Shown: one piece after another, positions 2,692 to 12,929 of the stretch
Layout of the letters: every line of letters begins with the position of its first letter
How positions within the stretch are numbered: position 1 is the first letter of the stretch
Virus record (IMG/VR): IMGVR_UViG_3300031721_000685
Span: 11,792-75,791 of that record
Origin: a virus
DNA: 64,000 nt
Direction: 5' to 3' (one strand)
Notes under the pieces: generated by a model
What the model saw: the letters and a program-made list of their open reading frames with translations, nothing else
What the model was told of the DNA's origin: nothing
Databases searched by the model: none
Position numbers and translations under genes: made by a program

Positions 2692-5210
2692 TGTCCTGGA
2701 GTATCCTTTTTATACTTTGCGTTCAACTCATCTGTGCCTTGCTCGCCTGCACCATACTCTTCTTCTACCATTTTAGCAAGCGCTCTGGGGTTTAGGTTAA
2801 GACTATATTTACGGATAACTTCTGCTGCCCAATAACCAACACTACGAGACCTGTCTTTGTCTCTTTCTTTTTTCACTAATTCAACAGCTTTTTTGTATTT
2901 GCCTTTGTTTAGCATAATGCCTAATTTGGATTCATCTACATCTAAAGATTCTACAACAGACGGCACAAATCCATCCTCTGCTTGTTGTTCCGAAAATTCA
3001 ATAGTAAACATTGTATCGTTAATCATAGCATTAAACGATTCAATCACGCCCTCATGCTCAACTTCTTCATTACGAACTTTAGCTGCTTTTGCATCACGAA
3101 TCCATTTTTTAGCTGCTGGCCTTTTGGGTTCTTTCTTGACCCATACTGCCATTCTTTTATATATAGCCATTGCAGCAGCATCAAAACGAACTTTAGCTGC
3201 TTTTGCATTCACCTCTTCTGAAGTGTCAATTACGATGAAGTTTCTCCCGAATTGGGTTTGGAAGCTTCCAATGTTGCGCTGTACAGCATTCCACATCTTC
3301 TCAACTTCATCTTCTGGTAATGTGCGCTCACGGGCTTTGTTGCGAGCCTGTGCAGTTTTAAGGTCTGAGTTGACGAAAATCATTGCAGTATCATAACCGA
3401 GCAATTCTAATTCGTCAGCTTGTTGTTTAATCTTACTGTAATTTTTACCAGTGCCATCAATGATAAGTCCTAAACGACCATTCAATGCGAGTTTTTGTTT
3501 TAGCCCTGTAAGTGCTACCGCACGACTACGAACTTTTTGACCTTTAGGTGAGAAAATATCTTCAGGCGTTGCTTTCAACCCAACCTTCTTCAGTAGTGCT
3601 TCGAACGCATCATCAGAATTGACTAGCTTCAGCCCCAAAGCAGTCAATGCTGTTTTACCAACAACAAATGATTTACCTGATCCTGGACCACCTGCAAGAA
3701 ATACAGCTTTGAAGATGGCTGGATCATATACGCCTTCATCAAGATCAAATTCTTCATTACGAACTTTAGCGGCTAAGTCAGCATCAGCTTTACCCCATGT
3801 ACCCTTTCCTTTTGTAATGAAAGAGTTTACACGAGCATATGCCCACTGTTCTTGAAGAGCGCCTGGGCGATGACCAGTTCTCCAAGCAGCCATACCTCTA
3901 TCATAGACCTTCTTGAGAATGCCATAAGAAATGCCAGACTTCTCTGCTTTCTTCTCTAATCCTGCAAGAGATTTTTCTACAATCACTTCTTCAAACATCT
4001 CGTTCAAAACGTCATCGAGCATATAGTCCACTTCTTCGATGAGGCCCTTTTCATCAAGTTCGACTGGTGCTGCTCTGTTGACTCTATAGCGCTTAAATCT
4101 CTGGTCGTGCTTGACTACACCTTCTTTACCAAACATTTTATGATAGCGCTTTGTGTGCTTTGAAGTCTTTGTAACAGCATCTACACTCTCTTCTGCTGGT
4201 CCTTCTCTAACCTTTGCGAGTCTTTCTTTCTCAGCTTTCTTTACAAGAGGTAGCAGTTTCTTAGCAATTTTACCAATCGCTGCCTTTTTCTTTTCAACTT
4301 GTTTATCAACTGACATTCTCTCTGACGGAGACAGTTGATCGTAATTGACGCCCTTTTTACCAGCAACTTTCTTTCTAATGATTTGAATTGCTTTTTTACG
4401 AGCACGAATTTTTAACTTCTCAGGTGATGCCATCTTCTTTGCAGCAATCCTGCGACCACGCATAATCTTAGATTTTGCTTTCTTAAAAGCCATCGCTCTC
4501 TTCTTACGAGCAGCAACACTGAGAACAGCTTCGAACATCAAGTCTTCGCCGAGTTCTAGTTCCATCTCTTCAGCAATCTTCATACCATCTCTGATTGCTT
4601 GAAATATCTTACTTGAAGAACTCTGTAGCTTCTTAGGAAGACCCGTTTTAAAGGCTCTCTCATCGCCGTCAGCAGCCGCAGCTCGCATCTTTGATGCTGA
4701 CATACCTTCTGCGCCTTCAGCATCAGGGTCACGCTCACCAGCAGAGACGACTTCAATAGAGTCGAATGTGTATTCTTTACCGTTGTATTTGTTGAGTAGA
4801 GTTTCAAACTCTGCAACTCTATCAGAGCCAGCAACCATAATGAGTTTTGTATGACCCATGTCTTCAAGCTCTTTAGCAACTTGCATAATTGTCTTTGAGC
4901 GAGACTTTGTGACCATACTACCAAAGGCTTTCTTTGCGATCGCAATCTTAGTAACATATGGCAATGGATTCTTCTTCGAATCATATGTTTGCGAAAGATA
5001 GAGATGTGGCATCGCATCATTTTGTGCTGCGATTGCGTTGATCTTAGCAACGACTTTTTCGTGCCCAATCGTAGGAGGGTTCATTCTTCCAAAAGAGAAT
5101 ACTGCTGTTGATGATACAGCTTCTTCTAACTTAGGATTAAGTTCAATCGTATTTTTTACGACAGCATCATTCTTCTTCTTGTCCTTTTTGGACTTCGTGT
5201 CGTCTTTCAT
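2688..5210 (-). CDS. Polyprotein: HIGH-family nucleotidyl(cytidylyl)transferase, basic domain, DUF5824-like domain and zeta-toxin-like P-loop kinase
   Basis: FGRMNPPTIGH and SASKMR (HIGH/KMSKS); VYDRGMAAWRTGHRPG..QWAYARVNSF; FLAGGPGSGKS, LIIDGT and ARNKARER kinase motifs; acidic LEE/LDE linkers between domains. Confidence 0.75.
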   Translation of the reverse strand: MKDDTKSKKDKKKNDAVVKNTIELNPKLEEAVSSTAVFSFGRMNPPTIGHEKVVAKINAIAAQNDAMPHLYLSQTYDSKKNPLPYVTKIAIAKKAFGSMVTKSRSKTIMQVAKELEDMGHTKLIMVAGSDRVAEFETLLNKYNGKEYTFDSIEVVSAGERDPDAEGAEGMSASKMRAAAADGDERAFKTGLPKKLQSSSSKIFQAIRDGMKIAEEMELELGEDLMFEAVLSVAARKKRAMAFKKAKSKIMRGRRIAAKKMASPEKLKIRARKKAIQIIRKKVAGKKGVNYDQLSPSERMSVDKQVEKKKAAIGKIAKKLLPLVKKAEKERLAKVREGPAEESVDAVTKTSKHTKRYHKMFGKEGVVKHDQRFKRYRVNRAAPVELDEKGLIEEVDYMLDDVLNEMFEEVIVEKSLAGLEKKAEKSGISYGILKKVYDRGMAAWRTGHRPGALQEQWAYARVNSFITKGKGTWGKADADLAAKVRNEEFDLDEGVYDPAIFKAVFLAGGPGSGKSFVVGKTALTALGLKLVNSDDAFEALLKKVGLKATPEDIFSPKGQKVRSRAVALTGLKQKLALNGRLGLIIDGTGKNYSKIKQQADELELLGYDTAMIFVNSDLKTAQARNKARERTLPEDEVEKMWNAVQRNIGSFQTQFGRNFIVIDTSEEVNAKAAKVRFDAAAMAIYKRMAVWVKKEPKRPAAKKWIRDAKAAKVRNEEVEHEGVIESFNAMINDTMFTIEFSEQQAEDGFVPSVVESLDVDESKLGIMLNKGKYKKAVELVKKERDKDRSRSVGYWAAEVIRKYSLNLNPRALAKMVEEEYGAGEQGTDELNAKYKKDTPGQ

Positions 5211-5286
5211 TTTTCTCTCCAGGTTTTCCGTAGACTTGACTGGTCTATGATATATTGATTATTTAGTAGAATACTACGTTTATTTA

Positions 5287-5745
5287 TTATAATTTTTTTC
5301 TCAAAATTCCAAGAGTTTTAAATCCATCCTCTTTAGCTAAAATTGAATCATATCCACACAACTCTAAGAATGTGGCAAAGTCTTTGCTGTCATACCAAAA
5401 CTTATCAACTGATTGAACTTTATCTCCAAAGGCTTTTTTTAATTTGATATAAATTGGTTTCAATTTAGCTAAATCTGTATTTTTAGATTTTTCTTTCATA
5501 ATCAAATTTAACAATTCTGTTATTTTCATTCTTTTTTCAGAATTTCCCACATCAAAAGTATTAGTAGGATTATAATCAATTGAATCTACTTCTGCATTTT
5601 TGCGATAATAGGCATACCCATCAGCAACCTTTTTATCGTATGAGAACCAAACTATTGGCTTCTTACCGTAAAGAGTATCACCTTTATCAAATCCTCTATA
5701 TAATTTTTTTTCATAAAATTGTTTGAAGCTTTTCATTTTTGCCAA
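5287..5745 (-). CDS. Putative ADP-ribosyltransferase-fold protein (ART-PolyVal-like) with capsid-targeting-like N-terminus
   Basis: LYRG...VWFSYDKKVA..YA...GYDSI matches the (H/R)G, F-S/T, A..Y and GYDG pattern of ART folds; N-terminal MKSFKQFYE. Confidence 0.45.
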   Translation of the reverse strand: MAKMKSFKQFYEKKLYRGFDKGDTLYGKKPIVWFSYDKKVADGYAYYRKNAEVDSIDYNPTNTFDVGNSEKRMKITELLNLIMKEKSKNTDLAKLKPIYIKLKKAFGDKVQSVDKFWYDSKDFATFLELCGYDSILAKEDGFKTLGILRKKL

Positions 5746-6962
5746 CCCTTTTGTACATCAGCAGAAAAGTTAGCATGGCTAAACTGAAGTCTATCAACTA
5801 GTTTTACAGCAGTGCCTTTCAACTTATCTACAGCAACGAAGCCTTCTTGACCTGTGACTTTGTATCCATCTTTCGTAGAGAGTAGTGTGTTGATTGTAGC
5901 TGCTTGGTCCATCTTCTTGATGATGATATCTTTGGCTTGAACAATCTTGTCCATTAGGTCGAAGATGAGTTTAATTTTTCTTTTATCAGTCTTTGTAAAG
6001 TATTCCATTACAGATGTTTGACGACCACGAACCCCAGACTTGCCCTTTTCTGTCTTACGCTTACCTTCTTCTTTTCCAAAGTAATCCATAAGATACTGCA
6101 TGAGGTCTTTCGTCAACTTCGTTGTATTACCCATTCTCTCACCGACACGAACTTTTGTGTTTAAGAATGTTTTTGTTCTCATAAGAAGTTCATCATTATC
6201 TGAGATGCCGTTGAGTGTAGCACGGTCAATCTTATTGAAAATCTTACCAGCGTCTGCTAGGATTGTTGTAATCGTAGCAGTCTCTTTTTCAGTCATCATT
6301 GCTTTGCCAGAAACGTCACGATATGCAGCATCAGTAGAGAATATACTAGATGTGTCTTTTAGATTTGATGCAATCTGCTTCGCAAAGCTAGCTTGCATTG
6401 TTTCAAATGAGTCACCCGTGTAAGTAGTATGCCATACGACGCCGATGCTGGCTCGTGCGATTTGGCGACCCAATGGAGTGTCTTTTGGTACAGCGTAAAC
6501 AATGGTATTAGGATGAAAAGTAATATGCTTGACACCATTATAGGTAATGTCTTTCGTGTCACCTTTAGTAAAGAGCAGGTCGCCTTGAATGACGCCTGTG
6601 ATACCAAGTTTCGGAAACTCTTGTAACGCAGTCTTGAGTTTATCTGCCAAATCCCCAGATGTATCGGCATCAACATCAGCTTCTGTTTTATATACCTTTG
6701 GGTTCTTGTTAAAGATACCCTTCTTGGCAACGAAAAATTTGTCATCATTTGGATCAATCCCTGCAAAAATGGCGGGCGAACCGTCCCATTTAACTGTAGC
6801 ATCAACTGTAGTCTTCGCATCGCCTGAGAGCATATCACGAAGTGAGCGTAAAAAATTAATCGCTTCACGAGCGCCATCCACACCGCCATTGAGAACGTTG
6901 TCCTCAATATGCTCCATGTGTGTATTCTTTTGTTCTATGAGGTAGGAGTTAAAGTTTTTCAT
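5733..6962 (-). CDS. RNA-ligase-like covalent nucleotidyltransferase (DUF6267-like)
   Basis: TVKWDG (motif I KxDG), IQGDL (III), QEGFV (IV), VKLVDR (V). Start moved from 7070 to MKNFNSYLIE at 6962, which avoids a long overlap with the upstream gene. Confidence 0.65.
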   Translation of the reverse strand: MKNFNSYLIEQKNTHMEHIEDNVLNGGVDGAREAINFLRSLRDMLSGDAKTTVDATVKWDGSPAIFAGIDPNDDKFFVAKKGIFNKNPKVYKTEADVDADTSGDLADKLKTALQEFPKLGITGVIQGDLLFTKGDTKDITYNGVKHITFHPNTIVYAVPKDTPLGRQIARASIGVVWHTTYTGDSFETMQASFAKQIASNLKDTSSIFSTDAAYRDVSGKAMMTEKETATITTILADAGKIFNKIDRATLNGISDNDELLMRTKTFLNTKVRVGERMGNTTKLTKDLMQYLMDYFGKEEGKRKTEKGKSGVRGRQTSVMEYFTKTDKRKIKLIFDLMDKIVQAKDIIIKKMDQAATINTLLSTKDGYKVTGQEGFVAVDKLKGTAVKLVDRLQFSHANFSADVQKGWQK

Positions 6963-8125: not shown

Positions 8126-8359
8126 TTATTTATAAGAACATATCTCTTTGCCCACGGACTCTGCTTCTCGAAAAGTCTTACGAGAGAACAATGCGACCAG
8201 CTTATCATTCTTATAGACGAACGTATGAAAGACTTTTGGTTTAGACCATATCATCGTTTTGAAAGTTTGTACCCAATTTAGATCATATTTCTTCATCATC
8301 TCAGCATCTTTATACCATTTGAGATTGTATTTCGCTTGTTCGATTCTATATGTTTTCAT
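8126..8359 (-). CDS. Hypothetical protein
   Basis: ORF in the minus-strand operon; ATGA coupling to the upstream ORF. Confidence 0.5.
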   Translation of the reverse strand: MKTYRIEQAKYNLKWYKDAEMMKKYDLNWVQTFKTMIWSKPKVFHTFVYKNDKLVALFSRKTFREAESVGKEICSYK

Positions 8360-8523
8360 TGATTAATCCTTTCATATACTTCCTTGACCATGAAGTATGG
8401 CAAACCAGAGAGCCGTTCAGCAGTCTCTAACATATGCGATTCGTTGTATTCTTCACAACCAAATTCGAGGACTTTTGCCTCATCAATCGCTTCGACAGCA
8501 ATTTCTTTTACTGTTTTATTCAT
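8356..8523 (-). CDS. Small hypothetical protein (55 aa, below ORF-track cutoff)
   Basis: MNKTVKEIAVEAIDEAKVLEFGCEEYNESHMLETAERLSGLPYFMVKEVYERINQ; fills the gap exactly, with its stop overlapping the next ATG. Confidence 0.55.
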   Translation of the reverse strand: MNKTVKEIAVEAIDEAKVLEFGCEEYNESHMLETAERLSGLPYFMVKEVYERINQ

Positions 8524-8525
8524 CT

Positions 8526-8792
8526 CTAAGATTCCTTATCTTCGCCTAACAAAATATTATTTTCGTTAGCAATCAGTTCTTCTTTAATATCATATATCGT
8601 TTCGTGTTTTATCATATTAATGATAGTATTGGTCAACGATACTTCCCGTTTAAGGTATCCAATTTTACGCTCTAACTCTGAAAGTTCTTTAAGGTAGTAA
8701 TCGAGTTCTTGTTCTTTACGCAACTTTTGTTCGATGAAATCGCTCATTAGTATAATGCGTTGTTCTTCGCTCACCATATTAATCCTTTTCAT
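8526..8792 (-). CDS. Coiled-coil hypothetical protein
   Basis: EQKLRKEQELDYY..ELSELERKI heptads; lies directly after a sigma70-type promoter. Confidence 0.6.
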   Translation of the reverse strand: MKRINMVSEEQRIILMSDFIEQKLRKEQELDYYLKELSELERKIGYLKREVSLTNTIINMIKHETIYDIKEELIANENNILLGEDKES

Positions 8793-8809
8793 TTCACTCT
8801 TATGAGTAT

Positions 8810-8838
8810 AGTATAGTATATTTAATATCGTTTGTAAA
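8810..8838 (-). promoter_or_regulatory. Sigma70-type early/middle promoter
   Basis: TTTACA-17bp-TATACT on the minus strand. Confidence 0.6.
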
Positions 8839-8849
8839 GACTTTTTTTA

Positions 8850-8857
8850 TATAAATA
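8850..8857 (+). promoter_or_regulatory. T4-type late promoter driving the plus-strand operon
   Basis: Exact TATAAATA about 40 nt upstream of the first ATG. Confidence 0.75.
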
Positions 8858-8897
8858 GTCGAATGACATAATGTTAAATTATATTAGGATTGATGAT

Positions 8898-9443
8898 ATG
8901 AATAGATTTATCATTGCTTTGTTCGCTTTGATTTTCGCATCTACGAGCGTTTATGCTCAAACAGAAGACAAAATAACGACTGATAATACCAGTAAGATCG
9001 ACTCTAAGACTACGGTCACGTCTCCGCCACCGTCTGCTATCTCTCCTACTATCAATTCATCTAACTCTGATTTGTGTACAATCGGTGTAGCGGGAGCAGT
9101 GCAGACTCAGATTCTAGGTCTCTCTGCTGGTAAGACTGTGCGTGATATGAACTGCGAAAAACTGAAGAATGCTAAGACGCTATATGATATGGGTATGAAA
9201 GTTGCAGCAGTGTCTGTGATGTGTCAAGACAAACGTGTTTTTGATGCTATGATGCACGCCGGAACACCTTGTCCATATGATGGCTTGATTGGCGCTGAAG
9301 CTAAAGCAGGCTGGCAAAATGATGAAGAAAAAGCACCGAAAGAAGAAAATACAGTTAGGAGTGTAATGGATGATGATAGCACGATTACCCTTATTGGTGG
9401 CGGCATTGTTCTTGGTTTGCTTACCATTCTCAGCATACTCTGA
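8898..9443 (+). CDS. Exported Cys-containing protein with C-terminal membrane anchor
   Basis: Signal peptide MNRFIIALFALIFASTSVYA; Cys-flanked amphipathic hairpin (DLC..GAVQTQILGLSAG..DMNC); GTPCP; C-terminal hydrophobic helix. The track start 8871 is probably too early. Confidence 0.7.
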   Translation: MNRFIIALFALIFASTSVYAQTEDKITTDNTSKIDSKTTVTSPPPSAISPTINSSNSDLCTIGVAGAVQTQILGLSAGKTVRDMNCEKLKNAKTLYDMGMKVAAVSVMCQDKRVFDAMMHAGTPCPYDGLIGAEAKAGWQNDEEKAPKEENTVRSVMDDDSTITLIGGGIVLGLLTILSIL

Positions 9444-10224
9444 AACTAAATCTGCAACTTCAAGGAACGCAGCAGATAATGTGACAGTATGGGATATGGA
9501 TCTGGTTCTACCACCTGAAACTGGTCTAATCGTAAATCAAGTGCGTTACAATTATACAGTAAATAAAATCCGTGAAGATGCTTTCTCGGTGACAATTCAG
9601 AACAAAAGAGTTGGCGGTGGTGATAAGAATGTTTTTGAAAGCACTGATGATTGGTCTGGCGTAGAAGGTCAGACGATTGTCAAAAATCTAGCTGTCGCTA
9701 ATATACCGAGAATACTCTGGGGCGAAGGCAGTCTCAATACAACGGGCGAAGGTGAAGTCGTAGATGCTAATGTTCGTTATAGCTATACGTTTGATAATTG
9801 TGTTAATCCACTTACAAATCCATTATGTCCTCAACCGGTTGAAAATAGGGAATTACCACTGATTATAAATCCCTTTGACTCAGAAGAGGTGCAAAACGCT
9901 CTTGCACAAACAGTTGATATTGAAGAAGATGATGAGCGCAAAGCCGATGAAGAAAATTCACTTGAAAATAAAGACAGAAGGCGACAACTAGCACGATCAA
10001 ACAACCCCTTAATGACTAATGCTGCTCAACTTGCTGCATTATTTGAACAAATGGCTTTGGTTCCTAAGTTTGAAGAATATTATGCTGTCGAACTACAAGG
10101 CGGCACCTATAAAGAAACTGTTGAATTAAAAGATGCTACATTACCTGACAATAGAAAAGCAATGAGAAGTTTATCTAAAGATCAGAAGTTTAATAAGATA
10201 ATTAGGTCACAATACGAAAAATAG
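9370..10224 (+). CDS. Exported protein: beta-sandwich, CxxPxxxPxCP motif, helical tail
   Basis: Signal peptide ending AYS; beta-rich N-terminal domain; NCVNPLTNPLCP. Confidence 0.65.
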   Translation: MMIARLPLLVAALFLVCLPFSAYSETKSATSRNAADNVTVWDMDLVLPPETGLIVNQVRYNYTVNKIREDAFSVTIQNKRVGGGDKNVFESTDDWSGVEGQTIVKNLAVANIPRILWGEGSLNTTGEGEVVDANVRYSYTFDNCVNPLTNPLCPQPVENRELPLIINPFDSEEVQNALAQTVDIEEDDERKADEENSLENKDRRRQLARSNNPLMTNAAQLAALFEQMALVPKFEEYYAVELQGGTYKETVELKDATLPDNRKAMRSLSKDQKFNKIIRSQYEK

Positions 10225-10237
10225 AGAGGATAAAAAT

Positions 10238-10756
10238 ATGCTCAATAAAGTTCAAATGAGATATTTTTTGTTATCGGCGGTTGCAGCAGTATTTGCAACG
10301 ACTGCTTTGGCAAACGAAGACGCTCCCATCACAGGTACAGTAGAATCTAAATGCGTAATCTTCACCGAAACGCAAGGTATCTATGGCACTCCACTAGCTA
10401 GTAGGCTTTCTACTGCTGTGGCAGATGGTGGCGTACAACCAATCATTCGTTATGATGTAGCGCTTGCTGATGCATTTCTTGGAAAGATTACCTTTCCTAG
10501 CGCATTTTCAAGTTCTCCATCGCTATCTGATACTCAAACGTTTACGGGCAACGTAGAGGTTCACAGTGTATCTGATGCTTTGATGGCAGATTATGACACA
10601 GATAAAATTACGTTTAACAACACTCACGAATATGATTTGACTATTGCTGGTACAGTACGATTCAAAATTTCTTCACAGGTCGACTACGGCGTCAGTAAAG
10701 CGTTTCCTGCTGGTACGTATACATCACTCGTAAATGCGGAGTGCATCGCAAAGTAA
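10238..10756 (+). CDS. Exported fimbrial/pilin-subunit-like protein
   Basis: GAGAGG RBS; signal peptide ending ALA; ITGTVESKC at the mature N-terminus and FPAGTYTSLVNAEC at the C-terminus, as in chaperone-usher/Csu (spore-coat-U)-type pilins; about 150 aa mature. Confidence 0.55.
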   Translation: MLNKVQMRYFLLSAVAAVFATTALANEDAPITGTVESKCVIFTETQGIYGTPLASRLSTAVADGGVQPIIRYDVALADAFLGKITFPSAFSSSPSLSDTQTFTGNVEVHSVSDALMADYDTDKITFNNTHEYDLTIAGTVRFKISSQVDYGVSKAFPAGTYTSLVNAECIAK

Positions 10757-10768
10757 GGTAGATATGTT

Positions 10769-11140
10769 ATGAAATATGTAGTTATAGCAGCAGCGCTATT
10801 GTTATCGTTTAGCGCTGCTGCTCATGAAATGACGCCAGCTTATATTAAAGTTAAACCTTCGGGCGTGCCCAATGTTTATCTCACCGAGATAAAAATGCTT
10901 AATAGAAGAAGTGATGTATCATACTATGAAATAACCGCCCATGATGCTGACTGGAAAAAATTACCCTTTGCTTCTTTTGAAAGGGTATTTAAACTTCCAT
11001 ACACAAAAAGAAAGACTATTAAGATATATTTTAAAAAGAAAACTGTAGACAAGCTTGTCTATGTATGTACGAAATCGAAGATAATTAAAGGAAAAGGAAC
11101 GCTCGTCTCATCTCGAATATGTTCTAAATTTAACCGATGA
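10769..11140 (+). CDS. Exported single-domain pilus-chaperone-like Ig-fold protein
   Basis: Signal peptide ending AAA|HEMTP; P-then-strand N-terminus, MLNR and FKLP..KRKTIKIYF resemble the PapD-type N-terminal domain; two Cys. Confidence 0.45.
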   Translation: MKYVVIAAALLLSFSAAAHEMTPAYIKVKPSGVPNVYLTEIKMLNRRSDVSYYEITAHDADWKKLPFASFERVFKLPYTKRKTIKIYFKKKTVDKLVYVCTKSKIIKGKGTLVSSRICSKFNR

Positions 11141-11544
11141 AATATATTGCTTTTTTGATGATACTGTTGATGAGCACCTCGGCATATGCTCAATCAACTA
11201 GTTTGAATTTAAGTATTCCGAGCGCATCTAACTCGTTTGGAAGCGACAGATTTCGTGCAGGCGATCTAGACTGTCAGAACTCAATAGGTTCTGCTACAAA
11301 CTTCGAATTTGGCGTCACTGGTGTACGAAAGGGAGAGAATACTAATCCTCTCAGTTCAAATTTTGGCAAATCGTCACCAGATGTAGGCGTATATGCTAGA
11401 ATCGTGATACCGCTAGGCGCAAGACCAAAGGCAAGAATTAACTGTGATACGCTATATCAATTAGAACTATCAAAGAAACGATTAGAAATTCTTAAACTTC
11501 AAAAAGAACTCAGTGAACTGAAAGCATTGCAGTTTGAGAATTAG
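11137..11544 (+). CDS. Exported protein with Cys-bracketed amphipathic beta-strands and coiled coil (candidate oligomeric outer-membrane pore)
   Basis: Signal peptide ending AYA; NFEFGVTG and VGVYARIVIPLG alternating strands between two Cys; C-terminal heptads. Confidence 0.5.
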   Translation: MKYIAFLMILLMSTSAYAQSTSLNLSIPSASNSFGSDRFRAGDLDCQNSIGSATNFEFGVTGVRKGENTNPLSSNFGKSSPDVGVYARIVIPLGARPKARINCDTLYQLELSKKRLEILKLQKELSELKALQFEN

Positions 11545-11553
11545 GAGAGCGTA

Positions 11554-12033
11554 ATGGCCGAAGTAGAAATTGCTGGAATAAACCTCAAAGGGGGCAAAAT
11601 CATGGTCCTCTTTACAGTTCTATCTACTCTCGGTGGTGGGCTGTGGGGCGGCTTCGAGTTTTATTCAGACTATAGAGCGATGAAAGAAGTTGTTGAGAAC
11701 ATCGACATTCAGGAAATCAAAGCAGGCAATGCTCTTGTGATTACCAAGTTAGATGAAGCAATCGATTACACCAGAGATATTAAACAGGGACTCAAAGCCG
11801 ATATCATTCGTACAGAGAAAATAACAGACGATACGAGCCGTCGTATGAAAGACCTTGAAAGAGGTATCGATGTTCGTATGAGAGAATTGTCAAAGCTTTC
11901 TCGTGAGTCTGAAAAGGATGTTAGAAATACAATGCGTGAAACAGAAGAACGCATAGACCTCAAGATGGAAAAGCTGGATACTAGTCTGAGAGAGTCGCTT
12001 CAAGAAGCACTTGATAATCCTCTAACAAAATAA
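11554..12033 (+). CDS. Membrane-anchored coiled-coil protein
   Basis: AGGAG RBS; N-terminal TM segment IMVLFTVLSTLGGGLWGGF; long charged heptad region. Confidence 0.7.
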   Translation: MAEVEIAGINLKGGKIMVLFTVLSTLGGGLWGGFEFYSDYRAMKEVVENIDIQEIKAGNALVITKLDEAIDYTRDIKQGLKADIIRTEKITDDTSRRMKDLERGIDVRMRELSKLSRESEKDVRNTMRETEERIDLKMEKLDTSLRESLQEALDNPLTK

Positions 12034-12039
12034 ACATTT

Positions 12040-12528
12040 CTAATTGACATATATTCCTTGACGATTAAAATTATTCATAATGAATTCTTTTGCTAATGGA
12101 CCTTGCAAGGCATATGCTTCTGTTTCCCACGGCTCTTTTTTAGAGAATCTCCTGTATTTGCCATCCTTGCATCTCCAGCTATGAGTGCTTACCATACGTT
12201 TAGTTGCATTTTGCATAACATGAACCATTTCATGACAAACGGTAGAAATGAATGCATCAACGCCATCATCAATCCCTTCTATAATTCCATCACGAGATAA
12301 TCGATTATCTATTTCAATAACATATGATTTATAACCAACATCTTTATAGCAAAACCCATATGCATTCTCTTTTAAAGTGTTTCGGATTATGCATTGAATA
12401 TTTAAATTTCGATGCCGTGATAATAATTTCTTAACACAAAAATCCATAACATTTTCAGCAAGAATTCGGTCTTCTTTGATGCCACCTCTTGTTTCTATAA
12501 TAATCATCGTATTAACAGAAAGCAACAC
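12040..12528 (-). CDS. HExxH zinc metallopeptidase-like protein (SprT-like)
   Basis: TVCHEMVHVMQ and EPWETEAY. The true start is probably MIIIETRGG. Confidence 0.7.
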   Translation of the reverse strand: MLLSVNTMIIIETRGGIKEDRILAENVMDFCVKKLLSRHRNLNIQCIIRNTLKENAYGFCYKDVGYKSYVIEIDNRLSRDGIIEGIDDGVDAFISTVCHEMVHVMQNATKRMVSTHSWRCKDGKYRRFSKKEPWETEAYALQGPLAKEFIMNNFNRQGIYVN

Positions 12529-12755: not shown

Positions 12756-12763
12756 TATAAATA
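12756..12763 (+). promoter_or_regulatory. T4-type late promoter
   Basis: Exact TATAAATA. Confidence 0.65.
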
Positions 12764-12767
12764 GAAC

Positions 12768-12929
12768 ACTGGGTGCGTGTTAGTGTATTCAAAGGAGTAC
12801 AAGAGGCAAGTGTTAGGATCATATCAATCCAAAGCAAGGAAAAGTCGAAGTCACACTAAGGTGTCGCTGGGGTTGCGTTCGACCACGCTGATAGGTAAAT
12901 AAAACCGCTTCTTCGAGGCGGTTTTTTTT
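12768..12929 (+). ncRNA. Candidate structured small RNA (about 160 nt)
   Basis: Bounded by a late promoter and a terminator, with no ORF. Pairings: GCGTG/CACGC, GTCGAA/TTCGAC, TTAGTGT/ACACTAA, GTATTC/GAGTAC, GGAT/ATCC. Confidence 0.5.
12901..12929. terminator. Intrinsic terminator, probably bidirectional
   Basis: AAAACCGCTTC-TTC-GAGGCGGTTTTTTTT; also lies just past the gp41 stop on the minus strand. Confidence 0.8.

Follow-up and report, generated by a model that had tools for sequence, protein, structure and literature searches.

The subject of this study is a cassette of six genes, here named g1 to g6, that lies on the plus strand at positions 8850-12033 of a 64,000-nucleotide stretch of viral DNA (positions 11,792 to 75,791 of the IMG/VR record IMGVR_UViG_3300031721_000685; this whole stretch is referred to as the window). 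The complete record is 75.8 kb long with a CheckV completeness of 42%, and Pfam searches of it revealed genes like those for gp23, gp20, gp18, gp17, gp43, gp41, UvsX and gp46, all of them on the minus strand. The capsid protein encoded in the window has 64-65% identity to its counterparts in Stenotrophomonas phage DLP_6, Methylophilales phage Melnitz and Pelagibacter phage HTVC008M, and the record derives from a T4-like myovirus whose host is a marine Gram-negative heterotroph. An earlier note, made from the letters alone, had described the six genes as a late-expressed operon of exported proteins resembling a minimal pilus or surface-fibre system that has no usher. The features of the cassette, with gene coordinates as in the list of open reading frames (ORFs), are as follows.

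8850-8857, plus strand: T4-type late promoter motif TATAAATA, an exact match, 41 nt 5' of the g1 ATG.
8898-9443 (8898(8871)-9443 in the ORF list), plus strand: g1, with a predicted signal peptide, a Ser/Thr/Pro-rich linker, a highly conserved 4-Cys domain and a C-terminal membrane anchor.
9370-10224, plus strand: g2, with a predicted signal peptide, a beta-rich N-terminal domain, an acidic linker and a small conserved C-terminal domain ending in SQY.
10238-10756, plus strand: g3, a predicted exported beta sandwich with the conserved N-terminal stretch PITGTVESKC and a fixed C-terminal strand, AGTYT..AECIA.
10769-11140, plus strand: g4, a predicted exported single-domain protein with a PapD-like fold (that of a chaperone N-domain or MSP).
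11137-11544, plus strand: g5, predicted to be exported, in which Cys residues clamp an amphipathic beta-hairpin and the C-terminus is a heptad coiled coil.
11554-12033, plus strand: g6, predicted to be bitopic in the inner membrane, with its membrane segment at the N-terminus, then a coiled coil whose length varies and, at the C-terminus, an invariant Q..LDNPL.

The genes of the cassette are separated by gaps of 9-13 nt or overlap, by 4 nt at g4/g5 and by 74 nt at g1/g2. When the plus strand outside the cassette was examined, it was found that each ORF of at least 150 residues is nested in a longer minus-strand gene and, therefore, the cassette is the only plus-strand gene cluster of the window. 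This agrees with the claim of the earlier note that these genes form a tightly coupled operon, the sole plus-strand operon in 64 kb. The motif upstream of g1 occurs 17 times in the window compared to 5.5 expected copies, a count that was reached in none of 100 shuffles, and the remaining copies lie mostly just 5' of structural genes (those for gp23, gp20, gp18 and similar proteins). In 39 of 66 related loci an exact copy of the motif is present within 250 nt 5' of g1. That an exact T4 late promoter motif lies at 8850, as had been claimed, is thus supported by its exact match, its enrichment in the window and its retention in related loci, and it places the expression of the cassette at the end of infection. 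A seawater RNA-seq library contained contigs that match g2 and the g5/g6 junction with 0-2 mismatches. As carry-over of DNA is possible, this is weak evidence that the cassette is transcribed; most of the cassette is uncovered by contigs in RNA libraries, which proves little. The only other plus-strand copy of TATAAATA, at 12756-12763, lies in a region of very short ORFs, the longest of which (12777-12902) encodes 41 residues.

Signal peptides and membrane segments were called with our own hydropathy heuristic, which asks for a hydrophobic core and, in signal peptides, for small residues at -3/-1. A hydrophobic N-terminal core with small residues at these positions was found in 21-29 of the 23-29 homologues of g1 to g5, and in the alignments of these five proteins the N-termini vary whereas the mature parts are conserved. 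The invariant Cys residues are C60, C86, C109 and C125 in g1, C39 and C169 in g3, C100 and C118 in g4, and C46 and C103 in g5, and a Cys pair is present in most homologues of g2. Together, the predicted export signals and the even-numbered invariant Cys residues fit oxidative folding in the periplasm. In g6 a single membrane segment (about residues 16-35) precedes a helical region rich in heptads and the conserved C-terminus. The heuristic and the alignments are in agreement with what the earlier note had read from the sequence, namely, that five of the six products have Sec-type signal peptides and paired Cys and that the sixth has an N-terminal membrane segment and a coiled coil. Every member of the cassette is annotated as hypothetical; no Pfam or NCBIfam family was found for any of g1 to g6, and searches of PDB sequences with the proteins and with profiles were likewise empty.

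It could be argued that these are ordinary virion or assembly proteins whose hydrophobic N-termini are not cleaved, since the late motif is the same as that of the structural genes and g1-like genes are found in tail-fibre regions of podophages. This is very improbable considering that five adjacent genes encode signal-like N-termini of variable sequence in which the small residues before the cleavage site are kept, that all five products have even numbers of invariant Cys, that g4 finds its best matches in structure among periplasmic chaperones of pili, and that those cultured relatives whose capsid genes are the most similar have no cassette.

Monomer structure models and fold searches were made for g3 and g4. 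The mature part of g4 is a single domain of about 105 residues that begins with a His which is invariant in the marine family, and its AlphaFold2 model has a pLDDT (predicted local distance difference test score) of 90. When this model was compared to the PDB with Foldseek, there were 49 matches at E <= 1e-3, nearly all of them to chaperones of chaperone-usher systems over their N-terminal domain, and these included Caf1M, SafB, PapD, FimC, SfaE, DraB and FaeE with Caf1M and SafB at the top (E 9e-5 to 1e-4). The aligned part comprises residues 1 to about 115-130 of SafB, FimC, PapD, YadV, CfaA, CsuC and Caf1M and is a similarity of fold only. In a VIA-align search of 48,161 representatives the highest scores were for SafB (Z 10.7 over 101 residues at 3.2 A) and FimC (10.6), followed by MSP domains (10.0-10.5), PapD (9.6) and CsuC (8.9), whereas generic Ig domains scored about 7.3-7.7; the PapD-like scores are thus about 3 Z units above those of generic Ig domains. 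The 29 chains at Z >= 8 were mostly chaperone-usher chaperones and MSP or ASH domains, and g4 accordingly has the seven-stranded Ig-like sandwich of the PapD/MSP type. The proposal that 10769-11140 encodes a single PapD-like domain was therefore supported by the model and by both fold searches.

In the model of g4 the invariant C100 is in strand 98-104 and C118 is in strand 116-121, which are the last two strands, and a predicted disulfide between them joins these strands as the F1-G1 bond does in FGL chaperones. The F1-G1 disulfide is conserved in FGL chaperones such as Caf1M and it is critical for their complex with the subunit (PMC4133393). The loop between the last two strands of g4 is short (11 residues), unlike that of FGL chaperones. 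In PapD (R8 and K112) and Caf1M (R20) the carboxylate of the subunit is anchored by basic residues. In the last strand of g4 position 120 is always basic (K or R) and position 116 is mostly basic, and the resulting motif, R/K-x-C-x-K, is also found in the family of gp078 of Vibrio phages, which is homologous to g4 as described below. A copper 'histidine brace' was considered for g4 and rejected because the mature N-terminus of gp078 of Vibrio phage pVp-1 is Leu and not His as in g4, and because the fold search led to PapD and not to CopC/YcnI.

The mature g3 subunit has about 147 residues and its AlphaFold2 model is a confident beta sandwich with a pLDDT of 83 (more than 90 in the core, low in residues 1-38). 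The conserved N-terminal stretch (I31, G33, V35, K38 and C39) is not placed in this monomer model, where the 13 conserved residues at the N-terminus are unstructured. In Foldseek searches chaperone-usher pilins appeared among carbohydrate-binding modules and Gram-positive adhesins with target-normalised TM-scores of 0.32-0.50, and in VIA-align searches the best matches were generic sandwiches at Z 7.7, which is the noise level of this tool, with CanA at Z 6.5. No Pfam fimbrial or SCPU match was found at E <= 10 for g3 and 18 of its homologues, save single chance rows, and there was no relative of g3 among PDB sequences. The N-terminal I-T-G-T-V and the C-terminal A-G-x-Y-T presumably resemble the corresponding parts of Csu and Caf1 subunits, a likeness that no tool confirmed. 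The family is closed, with 111 representatives among 1.8 billion in a profile search and 234 members in a set of 5.8 billion proteins. A cellular origin of g3 was not apparent: among 185,579 species genomes, only three short contigs of metagenome-assembled genomes carry it. The earlier claim that 10238-10756 encodes a pilin is therefore neither supported nor refuted by these results: g3 is modelled as a beta sandwich, and its match to pilins in fold is at noise level.

These results lead to the question of what g3 and g4 do together. The best-supported molecular reading appears to be a periplasmic chaperone-client mechanism, since the modelled fold of g4 is PapD-like. Most likely, g4 would hold the neighbouring g3 by beta-strand complementation, and g3 would then be handed on, either to further copies of g3 through its conserved N-terminal stretch or to g5. 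Several findings weigh against this mechanism. There was no Foldseek match for g3 at E <= 1e-3, nor was there a significant structural or sequence link between g3 and any chaperone-usher pilin. No match to PapD_N (PF00345) was found for g4 at E <= 1 or for 23 of its homologues at E <= 10, and in the alignment the first strand of g4 has no conserved Arg like R8 of PapD. Furthermore, g4 consists of one domain and has no PapD_C, whereas true pilus chaperones have two domains with about 200-230 residues in all, and the PapD/MSP fold is also used as a plain peptide-binding module in proteins that do not build fibres.

The cassette was described as usher-less in the earlier note and this was found to be so: no match to the usher family (PF00577) was detected in the 75.8-kb record (completeness 42%) at E <= 1, and five further viral genomes with the cassette, of 89-100% completeness, also gave none. 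A six-frame search of the record for PF00345 also gave no match. Because it has no usher, no two-domain chaperone and no membership of its subunit in a known family, the cassette does not qualify as a chaperone-usher system, but at the level of g3 and g4 it may nonetheless operate in the same way. Compared to the FGL systems (Caf1M/Caf1 of Yersinia pestis and SafB/SafA of Salmonella), g4 has in common with their chaperones the fold of the N-domain and the predicted disulfide in the last two strands, and the gene that adjoins g4 encodes a predicted exported beta-sandwich subunit with a conserved N-terminal stretch and C-terminal strand. Unlike in those systems, g4 is a single domain of about 105 residues, there is no usher, neither g3 nor g4 belongs to the respective families by sequence, the fold match of g3 to pilins is at noise level, and the cassette is in lytic phages behind a late motif.

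Such likeness to FGL systems raises the possibility of a surface fibre or capsule built without an usher, in which g3 would polymerise by donor-strand exchange like Caf1, g4 would be the chaperone and g5 or g1 the pore, and which would coat the infected cell or extend from it to mask receptors or adhere, a reading close to that of the earlier note. That the best matches of g4 are FGL-type chaperones (Caf1M, SafB) with an F1-G1 disulfide, that residues alternate in the conserved N-terminal stretch of g3 and its C-terminal strand has AG.YT, and that the weak matches of g3 (CanA and the pilins mentioned above) are to subunits that undergo donor-strand exchange would all be in keeping with this. 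We nevertheless consider it unlikely, because no usher was found in the six cassette-bearing records, g3 as a monomer is already modelled with confidence as a closed sandwich, with matches at noise level, and the putative pore proteins g5 and g1 are not detectably related to each other by hhalign. Also, no longer or fused form of g4 was found, including g3-g4 or g4-g5 fusions, which is weak evidence. A version in which lytic marine phages build a Caf1-like coat or thin g3 fibre, without an usher, on or in the envelope of the dying host shortly before lysis, assembled by the one-domain g4 and a small oligomeric g5 in the outer membrane, is likewise doubtful.

The remaining members of the cassette were characterized by alignments and profile searches. 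The g5 family is large, with at least 5622 protein clusters in metagenomes, and its Protein Atlas clusters are 87-95% viral; g5 matches phrog_37374, the family of pVp-1 gp079. When g5 was searched with tblastn, weak but consistent matches were found in 82 cultured Vibrio and Erwinia phages, which include T5-like Vibrio phages (pVp-1, River4, VPG01 and others), 80-kb Vibrio siphoviruses and Erwinia phage pEp_SNUABM_01. In one of the related loci (L089, Vibrio phage 51E28.4) the reading of the g5-like gene at 4941-5330 depends on its start: from the upstream ATG (4941) the product contains a lipobox-like VLAAC and would be a lipoprotein, whereas with the annotated start (5043) there is no export signal. 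The alignment of g1 has 56 invariant columns, among them those of the four Cys residues, and a membrane segment is predicted at about residues 160-181; g1 matches phrog_20531 at E 5e-13, and its 4-Cys domain is also found in Pelagibacter, Roseobacter and Ralstonia phages. The summed contig depth at window 9169-9335 in metagenome run X6 was 266 compared to about 13 elsewhere, and this peak coincides with the most conserved part of the 4-Cys domain, which is common to many different marine phages. The idea that g1 and g5 are relatives with the same Cys-hairpin layout was dropped, as hhalign aligned only their signal peptides.

The signal peptide of g2 is encoded within the codons of the g1 membrane anchor in another reading frame (9370-9443, the 74-nt overlap). 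Among the members of the cassette g2 is the most divergent, with 30-37% identity, and no family or solved relative of it was found in Pfam, NCBIfam or PDB sequences; a Protein Atlas search was uninformative. That g2 might be a second pilin-like subunit was rejected, since it has no similarity to g3 beyond a motif of 8 columns. For g6 there was no match to a sequence family. In about half of the distinct related loci there are extra membrane-protein genes inserted between g5 and g6, the commonest of which encodes a protein of 153-160 residues with a C-terminal membrane segment (phrog_32327; for example, L055 7351-7812 and L071 4011-4493), and in locus L017 a gene for a 72-residue lipoprotein with an LLAGC lipobox is present at this place (6709-6927). 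When these inserts and the pelagiphage partners described below were searched against PHROGs, only families of unknown function were matched. Length compensation between the coiled coil of g6 and its possible partners was looked for and no convincing correlation was seen.

The cassette is widespread among uncultured ocean phages. The g3 family is present on at least 584 IMG/VR contigs, and a tblastn search with g3 gave no match in any of 50,697 GenBank phage records. In 80 related loci searched by tblastn with the six proteins, g3 and g4 were present in all 80, g2 and g5 in 77, g1 in 72 and g6 in 71, and the order from g1 to g6 was kept in every locus that was sufficiently long. The flanking genes of the window recur in at most 8 of these loci and, when flanking ORFs were clustered, the commonest neighbour family occurred in 29. 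The conserved order in spite of different flanks shows that the cassette is not a chance arrangement, and this co-conservation, together with the late motif and the export signals, bears out the view that it is a late set of exported and membrane proteins. The flanks look like hypervariable phage regions, with genes for EF-hand, DUF932, 2OG-Fe(II) oxygenase, PD-(D/E)XK and cell-wall hydrolase proteins, the last in 12 of the 80 loci. T4-type gp23 is present in only two of five cassette-bearing genomes of 89-100% completeness; the other three, G001, G004 and G005 (holding loci L074, L014 and L012), are 91-100% complete, are 173.5, 98 and 92 kb long and have the full cassette. This implies that the cassette moves between phage lineages.

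Near-identical copies of the cassette stretch were found in 17 marine metagenome runs from at least 14 studies, and contigs from two unrelated runs break exactly at the borders of the cassette, at 8737-8739 and 12059-12070. Two observations were made just outside the genes of the cassette. Contigs in marine metagenome runs X6 and X2 skip 164 bases of the window (8354-8519), which removes most of a minus-strand gene for 55 residues (8356-8523) and looks like a population variant without that gene. On the other side, convergent on g6, the minus strand at 12040-12528 encodes a 162-residue protein with an HEMVH motif, weak matches to SprT-like and peptidase M91 families (E 0.05-0.17) and matches to PHROGs of unknown function at E 2e-15.

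By sequence comparison, the cassette is composed of two older sub-modules, with the trio g3-g4-g5 inserted between g1-g2 and g6. In the Vibrio and Erwinia phages matched by g5, the neighbouring genes encode g3-like and g4-like proteins: with hhalign, g3 matches the gp077 family of Vibrio phages (Prob 96, E 5e-9) and g4 matches the gp078 family (Prob 96, E 1e-9). In pVp-1 the genes gp077-gp078-gp079 (phrog_25895, phrog_25455 and phrog_37374, annotated as hypothetical) are thus homologous to g3-g4-g5, in the same order and with signal peptides, and g4 and gp078 share their PHROGs family as do g5 and gp079. The pVp-1 trio differs from the cassette in that it has no g1, g2 and g6 partners. The other sub-module is seen in the unrelated Pelagibacter podophage HTVC115P, where gp54 is homologous to g1, gp49 to g6 (35% identity, E about 1e-26 to 1e-32; profile E 2.5e-39) and gp53 to the C-terminal part of g2. 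Just as in g1 and g2, the signal peptide of gp53 is encoded within the membrane-anchor codons of gp54 (L082, about 5476-5606); the annotated start of gp53 misses this signal peptide. In HTVC033P, HTVC202P, HTVC023P and Mosig there is in each case a g1-like protein, a large secreted protein with a terminal coiled coil and a g6-like protein ending in NPL. Unlike the cassette, these pelagiphage sets, which are from SAR11 podophages and one myophage, have no g3-g4-g5 and have other small membrane proteins between their members.

What bears on the role of the cassette is that in cultured phages both sub-modules usually adjoin annotated lysis genes. The trio is 2-3 genes 5' of the holin and endolysin genes in pVp-1 and River4, as is a g5-like remnant in Vibrio phage VF16; a g6-like gene abuts an M15 peptidase gene in HTVC023P, and g1-like genes are near lysozyme genes in HTVC033P and CRP-810. 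The cell-wall hydrolase family found in the flanks of 12 of the 80 related loci is in keeping with this association. On its other side, the trio of the Vibrio phages lies directly downstream of genes for proteins of 818-861 residues without signal peptides, which are hypothetical in the records and which we read as tail-fibre-like. Lysis and tail-fibre-like neighbours point to lysis, release or receptor masking and not to an adhesive pilus. Accordingly, an adhesive pilus is less likely than a role in lysis or release, and no support was found for the earlier suggestion that infected cells adhere to new hosts.

If the role is in lysis, one may ask whether the cassette is a non-canonical device of the spanin type, with g6 as the inner-membrane arm, g5 or g2 as an outer-membrane arm that is not a lipoprotein, and the others as accessory proteins. 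Like spanins (Rz/Rz1 of lambda and PseT.3/PseT.2 of T4), g6 is predicted to be bitopic with a coiled coil, and it has the topology of an i-spanin, which is a likeness of topology only: an N-terminal membrane segment and a predicted periplasmic coiled coil, here followed by a conserved C-terminal motif. Its relatives in pelagiphages are beside endolysin genes, with no spanin annotated in the genome stretches examined; similar coiled coils are found at the ends of g5 and of the large secreted proteins of pelagiphages, the lipoprotein gene of L017 is between g5 and g6, and the late promoter motif suits a lysis role. The cassette differs from spanins in having no lipoprotein partner for the outer membrane, as no plus-strand ORF of at least 25 residues with a lipobox was found in 8801-12100, and in having four further exported proteins, of which the PapD-fold protein and the beta-sandwich subunit have no place in known spanins. 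Moreover, among T5-like Vibrio phages the trio is found alongside lineages with a canonical Rz/Rz1. VF16 has no g3-like and g4-like genes and has a canonical Rz/Rz1-like pair (VF16_070/069) 1 kb upstream of the g5-like gene (L093 2234-2794). In this gene the g5-like sequence is joined to an unrelated N-terminus that has no signal peptide, as if it had remained after a deletion. In VF16, which lost g3 and g4 and has its own Rz/Rz1, the trio is therefore dispensable for lysis and is accessory rather than a spanin, and this also weighs against the lysis-linked assembly that we prefer below. A spanin-type device thus seems improbable.

The same neighbourhoods could also be understood if the products form a non-polymeric complex for superinfection exclusion or receptor masking, which would bind outer-membrane or periplasmic components of the host, with g4 being only a peptide-binding adaptor. 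Such a complex would block adsorption or DNA entry by other phages, or would prevent progeny from adsorbing to debris like Llp of T5. The position of the Vibrio trio downstream of the tail-fibre-like proteins, together with a small lipoprotein gene that follows the trio, would suit this, as would the g1-like gene of HTVC115P, which comes after genes for a Gly-rich-domain protein and a tail assembly chaperone. That the cassette is an accessory element in variable regions and that g2 is its most divergent member, as expected of a specificity factor, are also in its favour. However, the exclusion genes known from T4 and T5 are early genes, whereas the cassette has a late motif, and g1, g3 and g5 are highly conserved across phages that probably use different receptors. 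No similarity to known exclusion proteins was found, in searches that did not include PADLOC. We regard exclusion or masking as possible but rather doubtful.

Our tentative preference is for a Sec-exported envelope assembly that is made late and is tied to lysis or release, although we hold this with less than even confidence. A scheme that would account for the observations is that marine phages carry the cassette as a mobile accessory unit and, at the end of infection, g4 passes on g3 as proposed above. In this scheme g5 would be an oligomeric component with its hairpin and coiled coil at or near the outer membrane, and g6 would sit in the inner membrane with its coiled coil and a C-terminal docking motif. 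g1 would be anchored there as well, so that g1 and g6 could tie the assembly to the inner membrane. We propose that the imminent lysis of the host makes an usher unnecessary. The assembly would act in the periplasm or on the cell surface, and its role would most likely be in lysis or release, either by weakening the outer membrane or by covering the dying cell, which would keep progeny from being lost on debris.

The earlier note knew of no described T4-like system of this kind, and in the literature searched we also found no description of such a phage system, nor of a late-exported phage protein with the fold of a pilus chaperone. The finding is more general than that note knew, as the cassette is abundant in ocean phages and crosses phage lineages, and the homologues in culturable Vibrio, Erwinia and Pelagibacter phages make it directly testable. 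To our knowledge, how phages of marine bacteria breach the outer membrane and protect their progeny is largely unknown. If the chaperone-client reading is true, the cassette would represent a minimal chaperone-usher principle that works without an usher, and the infection cycle of phages of marine bacteria would gain a new step at its end. Should g3 indeed form a polymer without an usher, the cassette would provide the first case of a chaperone-subunit assembly pathway in viruses, and one that ranks with the commoner accessory modules in phages of the ocean.

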